Below, piece after piece: positions 2,969-49,927 of a stretch of DNA of 64,000 nt. The DNA comes from Ktedonobacterales bacterium (GTDB lineage: Bacteria > Chloroflexota > Ktedonobacteria > Ktedonobacterales > DATBGS01), in contig DATBGS010000084.1 in the NCBI GenBank assembly GCA_036557885.1, positions 2,314 through 66,313 on the forward strand, read 5' to 3'. A model generated the notes under the pieces. It was not told the DNA's origin and searched no databases. It saw nothing but the letters and a program-made list of their open reading frames with translations. How positions within the stretch are numbered: the first letter of the stretch is position 1; each line of letters opens with the position of its first letter. Both the position numbers and the translations under genes were made by a program.

Positions 2969-3743
2969 GTGCGCGCTCCTCCTGGCTTTTCTGGTCCTGT
3001 TGACGGACGGCTGCTTCATGGCGGGCCACCAGTTCTTGCGCCAGATAGCTTGCCACCAGTGTTGCCGTCGTGCCAGGGCCAAAGCCCGCGTCGTAGCCAA
3101 GCTCTTTGGCAAAGGGATGTGACAGGCGTGGCCCGCCCACCACCATCAGATACCTGCCGCGCACGCCCTCAGCCTCGGCCAGTTCCACCAGTTTGGTCAG
3201 TTGGTGGATATGCACGTTTTTCTGTGTCACCACCTGCGAAACCAGAATGGCATCGGCCTGCTCAGCCTCAGCCCGCCGCAGCAGCACCTCGCAGGAAACC
3301 TGCGCGCCCAGGTTGACCGCCCGAAACTCCGGGTAGCGCTCCAGGCCGTAATGCCCGGCAAAGCCTTTGGCGTTAAAGATCGCGTCAATGCCAACCGTAT
3401 GCGCGTCGCTCTCGATGGCCGCGCCAATCACCACGACCTTGCGCCCCAGCCTGGCGCGAATCAGATCGTTAATCTCTTCAAAGCTGAGTTCTGCATGCTC
3501 GATGGCTTCCACGCTGAAGCTGTCTGGGTCCAGGGTGTGGCTGCACGCGCCATAGACCACAAAGAACGAGAAGCCGCTTTCCAGCGCCTCAGCATGCGCA
3601 ATGGTGGGCGAGGGAATGCCCATCATCACGGCATAGCGCCGCGCTGCCTCGCGTGCGCGGGCATCCAGAGAAAGCGGGAGCGTAAACGAAAGCTGCACCA
3701 CACCATCGTTGGCGGTGTCCCCATAGGGGCGAATCTGGGGCAT
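2961..3743 (-). CDS. kamE: lysine 5,6-aminomutase beta subunit (B12-binding)
   Basis: The N-terminus IRPYGDTANDGVVQLSFTLPL and the B12-binding DxHxxG block (SDAHTVGIDAI), plus VSQVVTQKNVH and GYDAGFGPG, closely follow clostridial KamE as recalled. Confidence 0.9.
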   Translation of the reverse strand: MPQIRPYGDTANDGVVQLSFTLPLSLDARAREAARRYAVMMGIPSPTIAHAEALESGFSFFVVYGACSHTLDPDSFSVEAIEHAELSFEEINDLIRARLGRKVVVIGAAIESDAHTVGIDAIFNAKGFAGHYGLERYPEFRAVNLGAQVSCEVLLRRAEAEQADAILVSQVVTQKNVHIHQLTKLVELAEAEGVRGRYLMVVGGPRLSHPFAKELGYDAGFGPGTTATLVASYLAQELVARHEAAVRQQDQKSQEERAHG

Positions 3744-3749
3744 AGGTTG

Positions 3750-5339
3750 TTATCCTCTTTCAGCCGCCCCCTGCGGCGCGGGTGAGTGCTCTTGAATCAC
3801 TTCCAACAGCATCTCATAAAACGGATTGCAATAGCTGGCGTCCCTGGCAACCACGCCTTCCAGCCCGCGCCCGTCATCAGGTGAACGGCGAATGTCGGCA
3901 AACAATCCTTGGGACAAGCCGTTGAAGAGGCCGCCCAGCGCCTCAAACTGGTGCAGCAGATCAACGGCTTTGCGCAGCAGTTCATTGGCGCGTTGGGCAA
4001 CCAGACTGTCTTCGCGCCAGGTGAACTGCTCGCCCAGGTCGCGGGCCGCGTCAAACGTGTAGCGTGCCGCGCGGATGCTCACAAAGCGGTCTTGCAGGAG
4101 CGGCGTGTGTATCGCCTCTGTTGGCATACCCAACAGTTGAATCCCCTGGCCCGTCAAAGCGCCGACGAGATTAAAGAAGCCATCCAGCAGATGCCCGCGA
4201 AAGATGTCGCCGGTCATGTGCTTGGTGGGCGGCATATATTTGATGGGGCTGCGCGGGAAGAGGTCGCGGATAAGCTGCGCCGAAGCAATTTCATAGAGCA
4301 GGTGGTTGGGCGTATCAGGGTTAATCTCGAAGGCATGGCCCAGCCCAATCTGCTCCTCTGGCAAGCCCGCCTCCAGCGCCAGCCGCTCGTTGAGAAACTG
4401 CGAGGCAATCACCGTATGGCCTGATTGCAGGGCATCCGCCGTTGTCAGGTAGTTATCTTCGCCCGTGTTGATGATGATGCCAGCGGCGGCATTGATGCGC
4501 CGCGAAAAATGCTGGTCAATCAGCGTGCGCTGCATATTAATATCGCGGAAGATAATGCCATAGAGCGAATCATTAAGCATCATATCCAGCCGCTCCAGCG
4601 CCCCCATTGCCGCTATTTCCGGCATGCACAGGCCAGAGCAGTAGTTGGTCAGCCGCACATAGCGCCCAAGCTCCGCGCTCACCTCATCCAACGCCGCGCG
4701 CATCAGCCGGAAGTTTTCCTGCGTGGCGTAGGTGCCGCCAAAGCCCTCAGTTGTTGCGCCGTAGGGCACATAATCGAGCAGGCTTTGCGCCGTCGAGCGA
4801 ATCACGGCGACGATGTCCGCGCCCTGGCGTGCTGCTGCCTTCGCCTGCACGATGTCCTCATAGATATTGCCGGTGGCAACAATCACGTAAATCCAGGGCT
4901 GCGGTGGATTGCCTCTGGTTGCCAGAAGCTCGTCGCGCTCGCGGCGGCTGGCGCGGATACGCTGCACCCCGGCATAGGCCAGCCGCTCTGCCAATGCGCG
5001 CACCTGCGCAGGCAGCGGCGCCGGGACAGGCGCAAGCTGCACCTCGCCTGCGGCAATGGCCTGGGCCAGCGGCTGCACCTCCAGCCCGGTTTGGAGCATG
5101 GCAGCCGCAAAGGGCGCCAGAACCCCACCAGGCAGCAGCGCACGCGCGCGCTCCACAACCACATTGGGCAGCGGCACATCTACGCTGTCTACACCATCTA
5201 CTCCGATCAGACGTAAGACGGTGCGCTCAATGGCAACAGTGGTATGCCCGGCGATCAAGTCCAGCACCGGGCGAGCAATGCGGCTGGCAGCGGCACGCGC
5301 CTCGTCCACCAGCGCGGTATTGAGGGTGAGATGGGGCAT
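3750..5339 (-). CDS. kamD: lysine 5,6-aminomutase alpha subunit
   Basis: ORF 3750-5759 trimmed to ATG 5339 (MPHLTLNTALVDEAR). Long blocks (WIYVIVATGNIYEDI, GADIVAVIRSTAQSLLDYVPYGATTEGFGGTYATQENFRLMR, NYCSGLCMPEIAAMGA) match KamD as recalled. The stop is 6 nt upstream of the kamE start. Confidence 0.9.
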   Translation of the reverse strand: MPHLTLNTALVDEARAAASRIARPVLDLIAGHTTVAIERTVLRLIGVDGVDSVDVPLPNVVVERARALLPGGVLAPFAAAMLQTGLEVQPLAQAIAAGEVQLAPVPAPLPAQVRALAERLAYAGVQRIRASRRERDELLATRGNPPQPWIYVIVATGNIYEDIVQAKAAARQGADIVAVIRSTAQSLLDYVPYGATTEGFGGTYATQENFRLMRAALDEVSAELGRYVRLTNYCSGLCMPEIAAMGALERLDMMLNDSLYGIIFRDINMQRTLIDQHFSRRINAAAGIIINTGEDNYLTTADALQSGHTVIASQFLNERLALEAGLPEEQIGLGHAFEINPDTPNHLLYEIASAQLIRDLFPRSPIKYMPPTKHMTGDIFRGHLLDGFFNLVGALTGQGIQLLGMPTEAIHTPLLQDRFVSIRAARYTFDAARDLGEQFTWREDSLVAQRANELLRKAVDLLHQFEALGGLFNGLSQGLFADIRRSPDDGRGLEGVVARDASYCNPFYEMLLEVIQEHSPAPQGAAERG

Positions 5340-15072: not shown

Positions 15073-15663
15073 TCATGGTTTTGGCAGGTCAGGCCACTTC
15101 TCCACAAGCCGCTGAGGTCTGTAGTCCAGCAGTTCATCAAGCAGCGCGGCGGGCGCCTCCGCGCGCCGCAGCAGGCTGAGGTGTTGAGGCGGGATGAAGC
15201 CTTCCTGAGCCACATGGCGCAAAAACGCCAGCAGTGGCGCAAAAAACTGCTCGACATCCAGCAAGCCAATCGGTTTGGCATGCAGGCCAATCTGCACCCA
15301 TGTCACCATCTCAAACAATTCATCCAGGGTGCCATAGCCGCCGGGCAGCGCAATAAACGCATCTGAAAGCTGCGCCATCAGCGCTTTGCGCTCGTGCATA
15401 CTCTCCACTTCGCGGAGTTCGGTCAGCCCGGTATGGGCCACTTCGCGCCGAAACAACCCGCGCGGCAGCACCCCAATCACCTCGCCGCCAGCCGCCAGCG
15501 CTGCGTCAGCCAGCACCCCCATCAACCCGACGCTGGACCCTCCATAGACCAGGCTGAGCTTGCGCCGCGCAAGTTCAGCGCCCAACGCGCGGGCCATCTC
15601 TCCATAGGCCGTGCGCGTCCCCGCGCTTGAGCCACAAAACACACAGATACGTTGCATCTCCAT
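15073..15663 (-). CDS. LOG-family (TIGR00730-type) nucleotide phosphoribohydrolase
   Basis: GGSSVGLMG and PGGYGTLDELFE motifs. ORF trimmed to ATG 15663; ATG 15657 is also possible. Confidence 0.85.
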   Translation of the reverse strand: MEMQRICVFCGSSAGTRTAYGEMARALGAELARRKLSLVYGGSSVGLMGVLADAALAAGGEVIGVLPRGLFRREVAHTGLTELREVESMHERKALMAQLSDAFIALPGGYGTLDELFEMVTWVQIGLHAKPIGLLDVEQFFAPLLAFLRHVAQEGFIPPQHLSLLRRAEAPAALLDELLDYRPQRLVEKWPDLPKP

Positions 15664-15756
15664 GCTCCCAGAATGTTGCTTGAGATTGTGCCATCCAAGC
15701 ATAGCCCACTGGACATGGCGATGCAACTACGTGCCGTTTACGCTAATTACAGAGAA

Positions 15757-15799
15757 GGGTCAGAAAGCCCCCGATCTTTAGTCGGGGGCTTTCTGACCC
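15757..15799. repeat. 18-bp perfect hairpin, candidate left-end (LE) structure of the element
   Basis: GGGTCAGAAAGCCCCCGA, loop TCTTTAG, TCGGGGGCTTTCTGACCC. There is no flanking T-run on either strand. The loop and stem top resemble the right-end hairpin. Confidence 0.5.
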
Positions 15800-15820
15800 T
15801 CGCCTCATGGTTCTGATATG

Positions 15821-15850
15821 TTGATAACATGGCTAGTTTTGTGCTACAAT
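15821..15850 (+). promoter_or_regulatory. near-consensus promoter with overlapping palindrome, probably giving a leaderless RHH transcript
   Basis: TTGATA (15821-15826), 18-nt spacer, TGc-TACAAT (15842-15850). The palindrome ATGTTGATAACAT (15818-15830) covers the -35. ATG 15857 starts 7 nt after the -10. Confidence 0.55.
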
Positions 15851-15856
15851 AGAAAC

Positions 15857-16051
15857 ATGAAAAAGGCGGCCCACTTTCTCTTAACTGAACAGGCTCGGCG
15901 GTTATTAGAGCGGCTTGCACAAACGGATGGCATTAGCAAGACAGCCATGTTGGAAATTGCCATCCGAGAAGCGGCACGTAAACGAGGCATTGATGCTCAT
16001 TCTGGACTACAAGCTGAGAGTCAACCAGACGCAACAAACCGCGATAGATGA
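15857..16051 (+). CDS. small ribbon-helix-helix (CopG/Arc-like) protein encoded inside the TnpB element
   Basis: MKKAAHFLLTEQARRLLERLAQTDGISKTAMLEIAIREAARKRG has an RHH pattern (beta-strand plus two helices). The tail overlaps the tnpB start in another frame. Confidence 0.5.
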   Translation: MKKAAHFLLTEQARRLLERLAQTDGISKTAMLEIAIREAARKRGIDAHSGLQAESQPDATNRDR

Positions 16052-17269
16052 AGCCATCCGCACCACACAGTTCATCAGGAACAAGTGTCTACGCAAGTGG
16101 ATGGATGGACGGGGCGTGGGTGATAACGACCTGCAAGTCTATTGCGCTCAGCTTGCCAAAGACTACTCTTTTGCTGCCTGCCTCAATTCCCAAGCTCGCC
16201 AAGCCAGTGCAGACCGCGCCTGGCTCTCCATTGCTCGCTTCTACAAAAACTGCCGGGAAAAGAAACCAGGGAAGAAAGGCTATCCCCAGTTTCCCTGCGA
16301 GCGCAGGGCAGGCAGCATGATAATCGTTCTGTCGAATACAAAACAACCGGCTGGCACTTAGAGCCAGATGGCACGCATCTCACCTTCACCGATGGGATAG
16401 GCATGGGCACGCTCCGCATCATGGGCGCCAACCCCACGCGCAAGAAGGCGCGCCCCATTGCCACCTTCCCCATTGGGCAGATCAAACGGGTACGACTGGT
16501 GAAACGGGCCGATGGGTACTACGTCCAGTTTGCCGTGAAAGCAGAGCGGAGCCTGCCCCATGCGCCAACCGGCAAACGGGTGGGTATTGATGTGGGACTG
16601 AAAGCCTTCTACACCGACTCGGAGGGAAACACGGTTGCCAATCCTCGCCATCTGCGCAAGGCGGAACGCAAGCTGAAGCGCTTGCATCGGCGCGTCTCAC
16701 GCAAACAGAAACGCTCGAAGAATCGTAAAAAGGCAATCAAACGCTTAGCAAAAGCGTATCTGAAAGTCCAAAGGCGGCGTAAAGACTTCGCCTGCAAGCA
16801 GGCGAGTACGTTGGTGAAATCTAGCGATTTTATTGCCTATGAAGACTTAAAGATTGCCCATCTGGTCAAGAATCACAAACTCGCCAAAAGCATCAGTGAT
16901 GCCAGTTGGGGGCTGTTCCTTTCCTGGCTGCGCTATTATGGTTGCATTGCCAATGTGCCCGTCATCGCGGTGTCGCCCAAGTTCACGAGCGCCGATTGCA
17001 GCGGGTGCGGGTATCGGGTGCACAAGAGCCTGAGTCAGCGTACCCATATCTGCCCCCAGTGTGGCTTGATCTTAGACCGGGATTGGAATGCCGCGCTCAA
17101 TATCTTGGCCGCCGCGCTCGCGTGGCTAGCCGCACACCCTGCGAGCGCAGGGCACAGCCGTACCGCTGGGCAAGCGGAAACGGGCCACTCGCAAGAGGGG
17201 CAAAACGCTTCGGGACAGACCGCCTCTACGAACGTGTTCGCCAGGGCACGTCGCAAACGGGCTGGTTGA
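15993..17269 (+). pseudogene. tnpB: IS605 OrfB-type RNA-guided endonuclease TnpB, split by one frameshift
   Basis: The N-part from ATG 15993 (MLILDYKLRVNQTQQTAIDEAIRTTQFIRNKCL...GYPQF) runs in one frame to stop 16361. The remainder (RSVEYKTTGWHL...GIDVGLK...IAYEDLKI...CSGCG...CPQCG...DRDWNAALNI) runs in the -1 frame to 17269. The switch lies near 16285-16320. Confidence 0.8.
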
Positions 17270-17307
17270 ACGAAGAATCCCCGGCCTTTAGGCCAGGGGA
17301 GTGTCAA
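17090..17307 (+). ncRNA. candidate omega (right-end) RNA scaffold of TnpB copy 1
   Basis: By analogy with characterised TnpB systems, the scaffold overlaps the tnpB 3' end and stops at the right end. The hairpin at 17279-17299 plus GAGTGTCAA resembles copy 2. The 5' boundary is a guess. Confidence 0.3.
17279..17307. repeat. right-end (RE) hairpin and terminal TCAA of TnpB element 1
   Basis: CCCCGGCC-TTTA-GGCCAGGGG (one bulged A) followed by AGTGTCAA. It overlaps the last codons and the stop of the VOC gene on the opposite strand. Confidence 0.5.
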
Positions 17308-17662
17308 TCGGCTTAAAGACGCGGAAGATATGCCCTTGTGGTGCGCGGAAGATAAACGTTCGGCCAAATGGCCTCTCGTTTGGCTCTTCAAGCATTTCTA
17401 CGCCGCGCGCTTTCCAGGTTGCATAGGTGGCATCAACATCTTCGACGATGAAGGCTGGCTCAAATGGCTGCTCACTCTCCTGCCCCCGCACCTGGGGAAA
17501 ATCAGGCAGTTGGATTCCCAGGATGGCCCCACCCCCCGTCTCAAACTGCGCCATCGTTGGCGCGGCCCCTTCCAGGGTGAAGCCCAATGTGTCCCGGTAA
17601 AACGCGGTTGCCTCAGCAACATCCTTGACGATGATTCCAATATACCCAATGTTTGTAAGCAT
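17288..17662 (-). CDS. VOC-family (glyoxalase/bleomycin-resistance/dioxygenase fold) protein
   Basis: ORF trimmed to ATG 17662 (RBS AGGAGGAG). MLTNIGYIGIIVKDVAEATAFYRDTLGF is typical of the VOC family. Confidence 0.85.
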   Translation of the reverse strand: MLTNIGYIGIIVKDVAEATAFYRDTLGFTLEGAAPTMAQFETGGGAILGIQLPDFPQVRGQESEQPFEPAFIVEDVDATYATWKARGVEMLEEPNERPFGRTFIFRAPQGHIFRVFKPIDTPLA

Positions 17663-17808
17663 GCGTTCTCCTCCTGGTCTGCTTGAGCACTGGTGTTGTT
17701 CTTTCCACTCCAATCATACCAGAAGGCTGCTGACAGCAGTATGTCAGCAGCCTCATGACTTTGGGAAGGGAGGAAGAAATTCGTTGATTTACGTCTTTGA
17801 TTGGTCTG

Positions 17809-26546: not shown

Positions 26547-26678
26547 CACACATCAAGACGGGTGGAGGGAACGGCCCTGTGAAGCCCGGCAACCAGCGCT
26601 CACGCACAGTCTGTGTTCAGGCGGTCTGGTGCTAATTCCGGCAGCCACAAGCATCTGCTGCTGGCTGGAAGATGTGCG
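26547..26678 (+). promoter_or_regulatory. SAM-I (S-box) riboswitch
   Basis: P1 is CACAUC/GAUGUG. The core AAGACGGGTGGAGGGAACGGCCCTGTGAAGCCCGGCAACC ... GGTGCTAATTCCGGCAGCC ... GGAAGATGTG is almost identical to the S-box consensus as recalled. Confidence 0.9.
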
Positions 26679-47147: not shown

Positions 47148-48085
47148 CGTGGCTGCTCCTCCTCCATTAGTGTCAGGAACACGTCTTCCAGGCTGGCCGC
47201 GCCCTTGCGCACTTCTTCCACTTCGCCGCCTGACTGCACAATCAGGCTCACCAGCGGCGCCATCTCGCTTCCGTCGCGCAACTGAATCTCCAGATGGCTG
47301 CCATTGGGCGCTTCAACAGCGGCCACTTCTGGCCGCGCTCGAAGCCGCGCCAGCAGTTCCTCGGTGAATCCCGCGCCAATGATCTCCGCTTGAGGCCCGC
47401 CGCGCTTCAGGCGCAGTTCATCCGGGTTGCCCACCGCCAGCAGCCGCCCCTTGCGAATGACGCCCACCTGCGCGCACAGCTTCTCAGCCTCGGCCAGGTT
47501 ATGCGTGTTCAGAAAGACGGTGGCGCCCTCGCGCTTCACCAAACCAGCCAGATCATCGCGCAGGGCCGCCGCCGCTACCGGGTCAAACCCGGCGGTTGGC
47601 TCATCCAGAAAGATCAGCGGCGGGCGGTGAAACAGCGCGCGTGCCACCGCCAGCTTTTGCTTCATGCCCCGGCTCCACTTCCCCACCTGATCTTTGCGCC
47701 GGTCCCACAGATCAAGATGCACCAGTAGTTCTTTGATGCGCGCCTTGCGATCAGCGGCAGGCATATGATAGATGCGCCCGTACAGATCAAGGTTATCTTC
47801 GGCGGTCATACGCTCGTACAGGCCCGCGAACTCCAGCAGCGCGCCTGCGCGGGCGCGAATCTGCTCGGCCTGGCTGCGCGAATCGTAGCCAAGCACAGTG
47901 GCCCGCCCGCTGGTTGGCTCCAGCAGCCCCAGCAAAAGGTGAATCGTTGTGGTTTTGCCCGCGCCATTCGCCCCCAGAAACCCAAAGACAATCCCGGCTG
48001 GCACCTCCAGATTGAGATTGTCCACCGCCTGGATTGGGCCAAACGAACGCGAAAGGCCCTCCGTGCGAATTGCAAAATCTCCCAT
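47144..48085 (-). CDS. ABC transporter ATP-binding protein
   Basis: Walker A GANGAGKTT, signature WSRGMKQKL, Walker B LIFLDEPTAGFD. Confidence 0.9.
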   Translation of the reverse strand: MGDFAIRTEGLSRSFGPIQAVDNLNLEVPAGIVFGFLGANGAGKTTTIHLLLGLLEPTSGRATVLGYDSRSQAEQIRARAGALLEFAGLYERMTAEDNLDLYGRIYHMPAADRKARIKELLVHLDLWDRRKDQVGKWSRGMKQKLAVARALFHRPPLIFLDEPTAGFDPVAAAALRDDLAGLVKREGATVFLNTHNLAEAEKLCAQVGVIRKGRLLAVGNPDELRLKRGGPQAEIIGAGFTEELLARLRARPEVAAVEAPNGSHLEIQLRDGSEMAPLVSLIVQSGGEVEEVRKGAASLEDVFLTLMEEEQPR

Positions 48086-48103: not shown

Positions 48104-48503
48104 TTACTTTCCCTGGCACTCCATAATGTAACGCCTGATCACTTCGGCTGAGACGGTCCCTGCTGTGCCAACATAGTACGCTTGTGTCCATAAATGCTCT
48201 TTTCCGCAGACGCGCTTGAGATGAGGGAAGCGCTCGCGCAAGTAGCGCGAACTGTCGCCTTTGAGCAAATTGGCAATCTCGGCAGGGGAAAAGCGCGGGG
48301 GTGCTGAGACAAACACATGGATCTGGTCCTGGTCCGTTTCCAGTGCGAGCAGGGTCAACCCATGACGCTCGCAACATTCAGTAATTAGCTCTTTGGTCGC
48401 TTTCTCTACCTCAGTAGTCAGAAGCTTACGCCGATATTTGGGAATCCAGACAAGATGATACGCGATTGAATAGTGTGTCCATCGTGTTTTACCCGTCTAT
48501 CAT
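48104..48503 (-). pseudogene. tnpA: IS200/IS605 Y1 transposase TnpA, disrupted near the N-terminus and with altered HUH motif
   Basis: ATG 48503 (GGAGGAGG upstream) reads MIDG then TAA. The +1 frame continues KTRWTHYSIAYHLVWIPKYRRKLL...TDQDQIHVFVSAPP...LWTQAYYVGTAG...RRYIMECQ to stop 48104. The HUH position reads Q-I-H. Confidence 0.75.
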
Positions 48504-48559
48504 ACCTCCTCCAATCTGTGCAATAATTCTAGCAGAGAACAGGAAGGACGGCAAGGCCA

Positions 48560-49792
48560 ATGGAGACCGTGCATATCTACCCATTGCCCAAGTTGCGTCG
48601 GGGCTATGCAACACGCTTGCGTGAAGCGCGCATTGAAGCGGCGCAGGTGTGGAATGTCTGCCGTGATCTCCATCTGGCGGCGCGACAACAGCATACTCGT
48701 TGGCCGAAGCGGGATGATCTCCAGAAAGCCACCAAAGACCGTTTTGCGCTGCATAGCCAGAGCGTGCAGATGATTTGCCATGCCTTCCTTGCCAATATTG
48801 AAACCACCAAAGAACGCAGAAAAACGAACCGCAAGATTCGCTACCCTTATAAAGACAAGCGGTATTATCCTCTGCTCTGGCCCGCGCAAGCGGTAAGCGG
48901 AGAGCGAGGGCGCATTGTCTTACCGATGGGTCGCGGGCGCCGTTCGCTCGTCTTCAAGGTGGACCTGCCAGAATGTATTGGCGGTTGCGAACTGGTCTGG
49001 AACGATGGGTACGAGTTGCACATCTCGGTTCCAGCAGTTCGGGCACCAGAGGCTCCTGGTACGGTGCAAGCGGCGGTAGACCTGGGAGAGATTCATCAGG
49101 CGGCGGTCACTACTTCGACGGGCGCTGCGCTGGTGATCTCCGGGCGTGGCATCCGTTCGCTCAAGCGGCGGCATAATAGAGCACTTGGACAGTTGGACAA
49201 GAAGCACAAACGCTGTAAGAGCGGGTCACGGCGCTGGCGCAAACTCCAGCGCGCCCGCCGGAACATGAGTGCTCGCAAAGGCCGTCAAGTCCGCGACCTG
49301 CGGCATAAGGGCACCCGCAAAGTAATTGCCTTCTGCGAGCAGCACGGCGTGGGGAATCTCTTCATTGGCAACCCGCATGGCGTGCGCAAGAACAACACCG
49401 GGCGCCACCACAATCAGCGCATGGCACAGTGGGAATATGGCAAGGACATCGCCTACCTGACCTATAAAGCACAATTAGCCAGCATCGAGAGCTTCACTGG
49501 TTCTGAGCGGGGTACGAGCAGCCAGTGTCCGGTATGCTGCTGGAAACAAAAAGTGAAGGGGCGCCTCTGGCGCTGCCGCAATCCCAAGTGCAGTTTTCAG
49601 GGCCACCGGGATGTGGTCGGCAGCGTCAATATGCGCTCCTTGGCGTTTGAGAACAAGATCACCTTCCCCGCTCAGGTCACGTATCAACGAGCTGGTCCCG
49701 TAAGGGTCTTGGCACGGAGTGAACAACCGTGCCAGGTGGTATCCAGCCAGCCCGTTGTAGGCGCCCGGACACGGGCCACCAGGAGAGCCTAG
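48560..49792 (+). CDS. tnpB: IS605 OrfB-type RNA-guided endonuclease TnpB (clade with relocated RuvC glutamate)
   Basis: AVDLGEIH (RuvC-I Asp), LFIGNP at the usual Glu position, SERGTSSQCPVC (alternative Glu plus first CxxC), CRNPKC and HRDVVGSVN (RuvC-III Asp). RBS AGGAAGGA. Confidence 0.85.
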   Translation: METVHIYPLPKLRRGYATRLREARIEAAQVWNVCRDLHLAARQQHTRWPKRDDLQKATKDRFALHSQSVQMICHAFLANIETTKERRKTNRKIRYPYKDKRYYPLLWPAQAVSGERGRIVLPMGRGRRSLVFKVDLPECIGGCELVWNDGYELHISVPAVRAPEAPGTVQAAVDLGEIHQAAVTTSTGAALVISGRGIRSLKRRHNRALGQLDKKHKRCKSGSRRWRKLQRARRNMSARKGRQVRDLRHKGTRKVIAFCEQHGVGNLFIGNPHGVRKNNTGRHHNQRMAQWEYGKDIAYLTYKAQLASIESFTGSERGTSSQCPVCCWKQKVKGRLWRCRNPKCSFQGHRDVVGSVNMRSLAFENKITFPAQVTYQRAGPVRVLARSEQPCQVVSSQPVVGARTRATRRA

Positions 49793-49927
49793 CTCGTTTG
49801 CACTGGTGTTGTCTGAGAGCGCATCATGGGCAACCACCTGTGATCTCACAGGGCCTCCTCGGAGGCAGGCCAACCGGAAATGTACGCGCTCAGAAGCTTA
49901 CCCCGTTTACGGGGTTGAGAGTGTCAC
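49700..49927 (+). ncRNA. candidate omega (right-end) RNA scaffold of TnpB copy 2
   Basis: By analogy with characterised TnpB systems. The terminal hairpin is at 49900-49915 and GAGAGTGTCAC at 49917-49927. The 5' boundary is a guess. Confidence 0.3.

Follow-up and report, generated by a model that had tools for sequence, protein, structure and literature searches.

A small ribbon-helix-helix gene under purifying selection, and probably encoding an autorepressor, precedes tnpB in a decayed TnpB-only IS200/IS605-family element of Ktedonobacterales

Introduction

Arc-like open reading frames (ORFs) have been reported in IStrons, insertion sequence (IS) elements, and CRISPR-associated transposons (CASTs) (Zedaveinyte et al. 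2024, bioRxiv 10.1101/2023.11.20.567912; Science 2024), and a functional study of Arc proteins explicitly includes elements that carry arc and tnpB only (Moon et al. 2026, bioRxiv 10.64898/2026.09.24.754181). In clostridial IS605-family elements, Arc proteins give chromatin immunoprecipitation sequencing (ChIP-seq) peaks on the element promoter and repress a reporter, and this repression is lost upon mutation of either the beta-strand residues or the site (bioRxiv 10.64898/2026.09.24.754181). A further pairing, the archaeal ribbon-helix-helix (RHH)/MazE-TnpB clade, was described by Altae-Tran et al. 2023 (PMC10691335). Here we analyze a stretch of 64,000 nucleotides (nt) from a Ktedonobacterales bacterium (contig DATBGS010000084.1; hereafter the window), in which positions 15751-17307 are a decayed copy of a non-autonomous, TnpB-only IS200/IS605-family element with a small RHH gene directly ahead of tnpB. 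A preliminary description of this DNA knew of no described RHH-TnpB pairing, a statement that these publications overturn (PMC10691335; bioRxiv 10.1101/2023.11.20.567912; bioRxiv 10.64898/2026.09.24.754181). The element is a new lineage within an already described kind of RHH-TnpB element and opens no new class of system.

As in the Arc-bearing IS605-family elements, the Ktedonobacterales element holds its small RHH gene within the transposon ends beside tnpB, the RHH gene is often unannotated, and repeats lie in the promoter region; elements with arc and tnpB alone exist among the Arc elements as well. Autorepression of tnpB expression, demonstrated there, is proposed here from sequence. The hosts differ, Clostridia there and Ktedonobacterales (Chloroflexota) here, as does the layout: in many published Arc elements, arc and tnpA diverge from tnpB around a bidirectional promoter, whereas the RHH gene and tnpB are co-directional here, overlap by 59 nt, and appear to share one leaderless promoter.

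CopG (RepA) of plasmid pMV158 represses its own operon at an operator overlapping the -35 element. Like the protein studied here, CopG (PDB 2cpg, 1b01, and 1ea4) is a 45-residue RHH core encoded by the first gene of a two-gene operon; unlike it, CopG controls a plasmid replication initiator rather than a transposon nuclease, and the two share about 36% identity over 44 residues. The archaeal RHH/MazE-TnpB clade likewise has an RHH gene directly upstream of tnpB, with a long 3' region possibly coding for a guide, but it is archaeal and immobile, its RuvC-III motif is rearranged (Asp to His), and the pair has been read as toxin and antitoxin. The Ktedonobacterales TnpB, in contrast, occurs in bacterial metagenome-assembled genomes (MAGs), keeps the Asp (DRDWNAA/DRDHNAA), and belongs to an element with both ends and multiple copies. 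With IS608, ISDra2, and TnpB-only (IS1341-type) elements, our element shares subterminal hairpins in place of inverted repeats, TTAC and TCAA at its limits (the punctuation of IS608), an ISDra2-type TnpB, and an omegaRNA region over the 3' end of tnpB, and it departs from them in its extra regulatory gene, the lack of tnpA, and a perfect left-end stem in the window copy.

Particular to this locus are the Ktedonobacterales lineage, the co-directional, overlapping, leaderless layout, and an RHH family that is mostly unannotated. If the role proposed below is right, Arc-type self-repression of TnpB transposons would also operate in a large family from another phylum, in a compact layout where one leaderless promoter serves two overlapping genes and the last core codons of the repressor contain the Shine-Dalgarno sequence of tnpB. 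With its many natural variants of promoter and repressor, the family also lends itself to tests of the evolution of specificity, and for annotators and those mining for TnpB it means that an ORF of 45-64 codons upstream of tnpB belongs to the element.

Results

A ribbon-helix-helix gene overlaps the start of tnpB

The two genes of the element are as follows.

15857..16051, plus strand: RHH (Arc/CopG-like) gene of 64 codons, with a functional core of residues 1-45 and a tail that overlaps tnpB (selection, fold, profile)

15993..17269, plus strand: tnpB pseudogene (Pfam OrfB_IS605 and Cas12f1-like_TNB)

Purifying selection on codons 1-45 marks the small ORF as a genuine RHH gene, which answers the question raised in the preliminary description of whether sibling copies keep it by selection. 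Synonymous sites in these codons are saturated (proportion of synonymous differences, pS, 0.5-1.0), the proportion of non-synonymous differences (pN) is 0.12-0.4, and pN/pS is mostly 0.15-0.45; where the corresponding rate ratio dN/dS is calculable, it lies at 0.11-0.43, mostly <0.25. The per-site entropy points the same way: in the part that encodes the RHH protein only, codon position 3 stands at 1.42 bits, position 1 at 0.75, and position 2 at 0.48. The tnpB ATG at 15993, already placed in another frame by the preliminary description, belongs to the +1 frame when counted from the RHH ORF, an offset that siblings share. Within the resulting 59-nt overlap, entropy is 0.44, 0.44, and 1.00 by codon position in the tnpB frame; since variation there follows the tnpB frame only, RHH residues 46-64 are without constraint of their own.

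The structural evidence agrees with the RHH fold first read from the 64-codon ORF. An AlphaFold model (predicted local distance difference test, pLDDT, 67) has RHH topology, with an extended N-terminal segment, a helix at residues 11-24, a G-I-S turn, and a second helix at 28-42, and a Foldseek search ranks CopG at the top, together with Arc, VapB, and TacA, at the weak E-values expected for 45 residues. CopG is also the best match, over its full length, when the profile of our alignment of the small protein (alignment A1) is compared with PDB sequences (E = 0.0036). Pfam and NCBIfam searches with the window protein itself stay below threshold (Pfam RHH_1, E = 0.032), and the assignment comes from the fold and the PDB profile. 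An exhaustive profile search reaches 1236 representative proteins of 45-70 residues at E <= 0.001, and the wider family has the form MKxxTSFRLSEEAxxLLxxLAxxxGISxTAxLExxIREAAxxxGI, several of its members reaching Pfam RHH_1.

The RHH gene accompanies a TnpB subclade

Scans with alignment A1 yielded 4 loci from species-representative genomes, namely three MAGs of Ktedonobacterales and one that carries the label Actinomycetota, as well as 18 metagenome loci, and ten further loci were fetched through their proteins, nine via TnpB (L023-L031) and one via the RHH protein P0003 (L032). In about a dozen of the loci found through the RHH protein that include the TnpB N-terminus, tnpB starts 136 nt after the RHH ATG, exactly as in the window. 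A search with TnpB returned more than 120 clusters at at least 66% identity, mostly from Ktedonobacterales, and the element type is common in soil bacteria of this order.

As an independent test set, eight loci were picked for TnpB identity (70-82%) and length of contig, ignoring the RHH gene. Seven of the eight carry an intact RHH ORF at the same 136-nt offset, and the remaining one is 5'-truncated, so the RHH gene does travel with a TnpB subclade, an association that had been put forward as a check on the preliminary description. Only for L025 and L031 among the eight did gene callers pick up the ORF. At L015, L017, L019, and L020, more distant RHH relatives precede TnpBs of at least four other clades, a different one at each locus. 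The remote members P0232 and P0292 do not adjoin tnpB, and the wider RHH family is therefore not transposon-specific, in agreement with the published Arc survey.

One sub-lineage, L010-L013 together with L009, has an RHH ORF that lacks an ATG at the usual place and carries an Arg-to-Trp change in the conserved IREAA helix, next to an intact tnpB; these loci possibly represent loss of the RHH gene with retention of the nuclease.

Ends of the element and the putative omegaRNA

The limits of the element were set by alignment with its siblings and comprise the following features.

15747..15750, plus strand: TTAC, presumed to be the target-adjacent motif and the site of left cleavage (sibling left-end homology begins immediately 3' of it)

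15751..15820, plus strand: left end (LE) with hairpin 15756-15800 (fold, sibling covariation)

17158..17307, plus strand: putative omegaRNA scaffold region, overlapping the 3' end of tnpB, with the right-end hairpin at 17279-17299 and the terminal TCAA at 17304-17307 (compensatory pairing)

17308..17325, plus strand: adjacent DNA that, on transcription, would form the guide (TCGGCTTAAAGACGCGGA...; by its location immediately 3' of the right end)

IS608 inserts 3' of TTAC, and its right end finishes in TCAA. The same punctuation had been noticed at this locus, and the limits of sibling homology indeed fall at these two motifs. TTAC abuts the left-end homology in nine loci (the window, L003, L004, L006, L025, L027, L029, L031, and L032), with CTAC at this position in L007, TCAC in L001, and TTAT in L028; by analogy with IS608, we take TTAC to be the target motif. 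On the right, homology to at least 12 independent sibling insertions ends exactly after TCAA (17307), with unrelated sequence beyond; the window and all close siblings end in TCAA, and some distant loci in TCAC. Because left homology starts right after TTAC and right homology stops after TCAA, the element is 15751-17307. It has subterminal hairpins at both ends and is without terminal inverted repeats.

Both hairpins that had been reported to bracket the locus are real, and they sit at the boundaries of repeated copies. The left one has 19-nt arms (15756-15774 and 15782-15800) that are 100% complementary, giving a perfect stem of 19-20 bp with a folding energy of -25 kcal/mol as single-stranded DNA (z = -8.1). 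The LE hairpins of the siblings have covarying stems but contain an internal loop (GAAAG opposite ATGAA), and by this comparison of sequences the perfect stem is peculiar to the window copy, in which the 3' arm appears to have been remade to complement the 5' arm exactly; an arm altered in this way could impair recognition by a transposase. The nearest left end to that of the window copy is the one of L031. The right hairpin (17279-17299) is weaker (z = -3.2) but is kept in siblings with compensatory changes and is directly followed by the invariant AGTGTCAA, the right end common to all close copies reading ...GAAGAATC-CCCC(stem)TTTAG(stem)GGGG-AGTGTCAA.

The fold of the last 150 nt is conserved, with 21 of 40 predicted pairs staying paired through changes on both sides, which suggests the kind of structure that an omegaRNA scaffold should have. 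Rfam matched no omegaRNA or other family within the element. The sequence at the guide position is different in every sibling, and, from its position and by analogy with characterized TnpB elements, 17308..17325 would serve as the guide.

A single promoter precedes the RHH gene

15821..15850, plus strand: sigma-70-type promoter with -35 TTGATA at 15821-15826, an 18-nt spacer, and an extended -10 TGcTACAAT, TACAAT lying at 15845-15850 (10 of 12 positions match, plus the TG)

The promoter proposed in the preliminary description is the only promoter-like site in 2.3 kb (15400-17700), and its -35, extended -10, and distance to the gene are kept in about 20 sibling loci, with the consensus tgtTGACAA-...-TGTGnTACAAT-6 nt-ATGAAA and a spacer of 17 or 18 nt. 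Its -10 ends 6 nt before the ATG at 15857, a gap that leaves no room for a Shine-Dalgarno sequence, so that the RHH mRNA would be leaderless. For tnpB, a Shine-Dalgarno sequence (GAGG) is found 7 nt before the start, inside the KRG codons of the RHH gene.

Four soil metatranscriptomes hold the locus at 99-100% identity. Contigs from three of these runs start at 15872, 15874, and 15875, and none of the four covers 15680-15871, the stretch of the promoter and left end, with both neighboring genes covered. A transcript thus begins at about the place predicted, and it looks leaderless: since RNA-seq tends to miss the first nucleotides of a transcript, the contig starts fit a transcript start at or just before 15857, which is supportive rather than decisive.

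For an operator, the 13-nt palindrome ATGTTGATAACAT (ATGTT-GAT-AACAT) that had been pointed out across the -35 was considered and rejected: its arms are 5 nt long, shuffled sequences do as well (p about 0.5), and most siblings are not palindromic there, which leaves it at chance level and not conserved. The 50-nt promoter regions of 22 loci do contain longer direct repeats than mononucleotide shuffles of these related loci, averaging 5.68 nt against 4.57 +/- 0.25 (reached by 0 of 300 shuffles), and inverted repeats average 5.23 against 4.70 (3 of 300 shuffles). One copy of the repeat usually lies near the -35 and the other at the start site, as with GTAGGCAT (twice in L032), TGTTGACA (twice in L027), ACAATGTC (twice in L030), and the pair ACAATGTA/TACATTGT in L015; the window has AACATG twice, at 15826 and 15854. 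ACATG at the start site is itself conserved, and the enrichment has to be read with that in mind.

The RHH protein as a probable autorepressor, and its alternatives

On balance, the RHH protein is probably a CopG/Arc-type dimeric autorepressor acting on the promoter of the rhh-tnpB-omegaRNA transcript. The anatomy, conservation, selection, co-occurrence with tnpB, and transcript boundary described here are observations, on which this reading builds; DNA binding, repression, and the operator sequence we infer from the RHH fold, the gene order, and the Arc experiments made elsewhere. An intact element would be transcribed from one strong promoter into a leaderless mRNA that would carry the CopG/Arc-type RHH gene with its 45-residue core first, tnpB next, and the omegaRNA last. 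Translation of TnpB would begin at a Shine-Dalgarno sequence of its own, which lies within the terminal part of the RHH ORF, and the omegaRNA would take as its guide the DNA just past the right end. The RHH dimer would then bind the element's own promoter and limit its own synthesis together with that of TnpB and the omegaRNA. The gating of tnpB and guide RNA by the RHH protein, suggested in the preliminary description, is plausible in this light and would match what Arc does in other IS605-family elements. The companion claim that the RHH gene has replaced the Y1 transposase is right as a statement of position; as an event it finds no support, for nothing shows a replacement, and published Arc elements can carry tnpA.

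Several observations weigh against autorepression or narrow its basis. No single operator motif is conserved, the repeats across the family being lineage-specific, and their enrichment over shuffled sequences is only suggestive given the related loci and the type of shuffle. The window RHH and its closest relative, P0002, read HFLLT in place of the xFRLT of nearly all relatives, a substitution of Leu for Arg at residue 8 in the predicted DNA-contacting strand, and judged from this sequence difference the DNA binding of their sub-lineage may be altered. The transcript evidence consists of unstranded assembled contigs from soil metatranscriptomes rather than 5'-end mapping. Finally, the likeness to Arc is one of fold and gene order.

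In the window copy, the RHH gene is intact and still transcribed and tnpB is destroyed; with a live RHH gene and a dead tnpB, this copy can at most supply repressor. A more elaborate version of repression, which we regard as doubtful, would make the RHH protein a copy-number or immunity control, in which the DNA-reading strand and the promoter repeats co-diversify between sub-lineages, each sub-lineage silences its own copies in trans, decayed copies are kept as repressor donors, and the leaderless RHH gene with the internal tnpB start fixes a high ratio of repressor to nuclease.

The RHH protein might instead be an antitoxin-like or direct inhibitor of TnpB in an addiction module, binding to the nuclease or to its complex with RNA rather than acting mainly on the promoter, as the preliminary description had offered for an alternative. 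A toxin-antitoxin model has been proposed for the archaeal RHH/MazE-TnpB clade (PMC10691335), the RHH antitoxins VapB, TacA, and AtaR are among the Foldseek matches, and the tight gene overlap would suit stoichiometric coupling. RHH antitoxins, however, bind their toxins through a C-terminal extension, and here the 19-residue tail (46-64) evolves under the tnpB frame only, with distant relatives ending at 47 residues. Moreover, this TnpB has a canonical D-E-D site and comes with transposon ends, an omegaRNA region, and multiple copies, unlike the immobile and rearranged archaeal clade, and in the window the RHH gene is kept and transcribed next to a dead nuclease. We consider an antitoxin role improbable.

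A transposition accessory or architectural factor, binding the double-stranded left end and helping or blocking a Y1 transposase that acts in trans, or setting the choice of strand, seems unlikely to a similar degree of our estimation. The RHH gene does adjoin the left-end hairpin, elements without tnpA must rely on a transposase in trans, and the sole Y1 transposase gene in the window looks defective. Transposition in the IS200/IS605 family acts on single-stranded hairpin ends, though, and RHH proteins bind duplex DNA; the enriched repeats lie over the -35 and start site rather than in the hairpin, and the published Arc data point to promoter repression. That the ORF is non-functional, its conservation stemming from constraint that acts on the DNA of the left end or on the leader of tnpB, might be argued from the subthreshold Pfam RHH_1 score (E = 0.032), from gene callers usually skipping the ORF, and from the coincidence of its last core codons (KRG) with the tnpB Shine-Dalgarno sequence, but this is hardly credible and is refuted by the pN/pS analysis (saturated synonymous sites, pN 0.12-0.4) and codon-position entropy (1.42 bits at position 3 against 0.48-0.75), besides the intact ORF in most loci examined, including seven of the eight chosen by TnpB, and the 1236 small RHH proteins that the profile reaches in the representative library.

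Inactivation of tnpB in the window copy

16293..16312, plus strand: 20-nt insertion that shifts the tnpB frame and holds the 18-mer CCCTGCGAGCGCAGGGCA (in none of the siblings)

17119..17157, plus strand: in-frame insertion of 39 nt within the variable linker near the C-terminus of TnpB, with the second copy of the 18-mer (absent from every sibling in the alignment)

In siblings, tnpB is a single continuous ORF of 397-405 residues. The protein has a RuvC D-E-D active site and a zinc-finger (TNB) domain, and an intact sibling (L001, 397 residues) matches ISDra2 TnpB structures at E = 1e-34 and NCBIfam guided_TnpB with 265 bits. The window copy retains the RuvC motifs GIDVG, YEDL, and DRDWNAA (generally DRDxNAA), with a change of frame between the first 100 codons (15993-16292) and the rest of the gene (16313-17269); because the 20-nt insertion shifts the frame, this tnpB is dead. 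An assembly error is excluded, as contigs of both DNA and RNA read through the insertion with identical sequence.

The near-palindromic 18-mer CCCTGCGAGCGCAGGGCA occurs in exact copies at 16293-16310 and 17137-17154, one in each insertion, and has no further occurrence in the window or in 31 loci. At both places CAGC comes after it, separated by 0 or 2 nt, and from the sequence the pair looks like the product of templated, microhomology-mediated copying between the two sites.

Copies, mobility, and transposase

In soil sequencing runs in which this exact locus occurs, DNA and RNA alike show a copy that carries, unchanged, the 30 nt with which the right end finishes and goes on into another flank (CGAATGGCTGTTCGG...), and positions 17148-17315 are covered at a depth of about 100-150, about 10 times the 8-12 of the single-copy flanks. 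Taken together, the depth and the alternative flank make the right-end module multi-copy in that soil community. RNA contigs of siblings likewise continue through the right end into different flanks, and two intact copies, L027 and L029, both come from JGI sample 3300045419. An empty site or excision joint across 15750/17308 was not reported in the soil DNA runs.

No Y1 transposase was matched in L001-L022, and none is among the called genes of L023-L032 (2.5-4 kb around the loci). The element is non-autonomous because it has no Y1 (HUH) transposase gene within it, and the only such gene in the window looks defective. This gene belongs to a second, unrelated IS605-type element at 48104-49927, which ends in a hairpin and GAGAGTGTCAC and comprises a divergent Y1 tnpA on the minus strand (48104-48496) and an intact-looking tnpB for 410 residues (48560-49792). 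Its tnpA lacks an in-frame start codon and has Q-I-H at the HUH motif, and an ABC-ATPase gene starting at 48085 leaves no space for a left end ahead of it.

At L017, a right end of the same type (…GGAGTGTCAA) is present at 2180-2234, about 770 nt upstream of the distant RHH-TnpB pair (3001-4301), an arrangement that suggests neighboring or nested insertions.

Neighboring features in the window

A glyoxalase/VOC-like ORF on the minus strand (17288-17713) enters the right end of the element, which supplies its six final codons and stop (IDTPLA and stop); with the flanks joined at TTAC/TCGG, the ORF would end in ...FKPSN and a stop. The element-derived end of the ORF places the insertion at the very 3' end of the glyoxalase/VOC-like gene, and on the minus strand the right-end hairpin resembles a terminator for this gene. 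Farther away, at 26547-26678 on the plus strand and unrelated to the element, the window contains an S-adenosylmethionine (SAM) riboswitch (RF00162, 68.7 bits), its only Rfam match.

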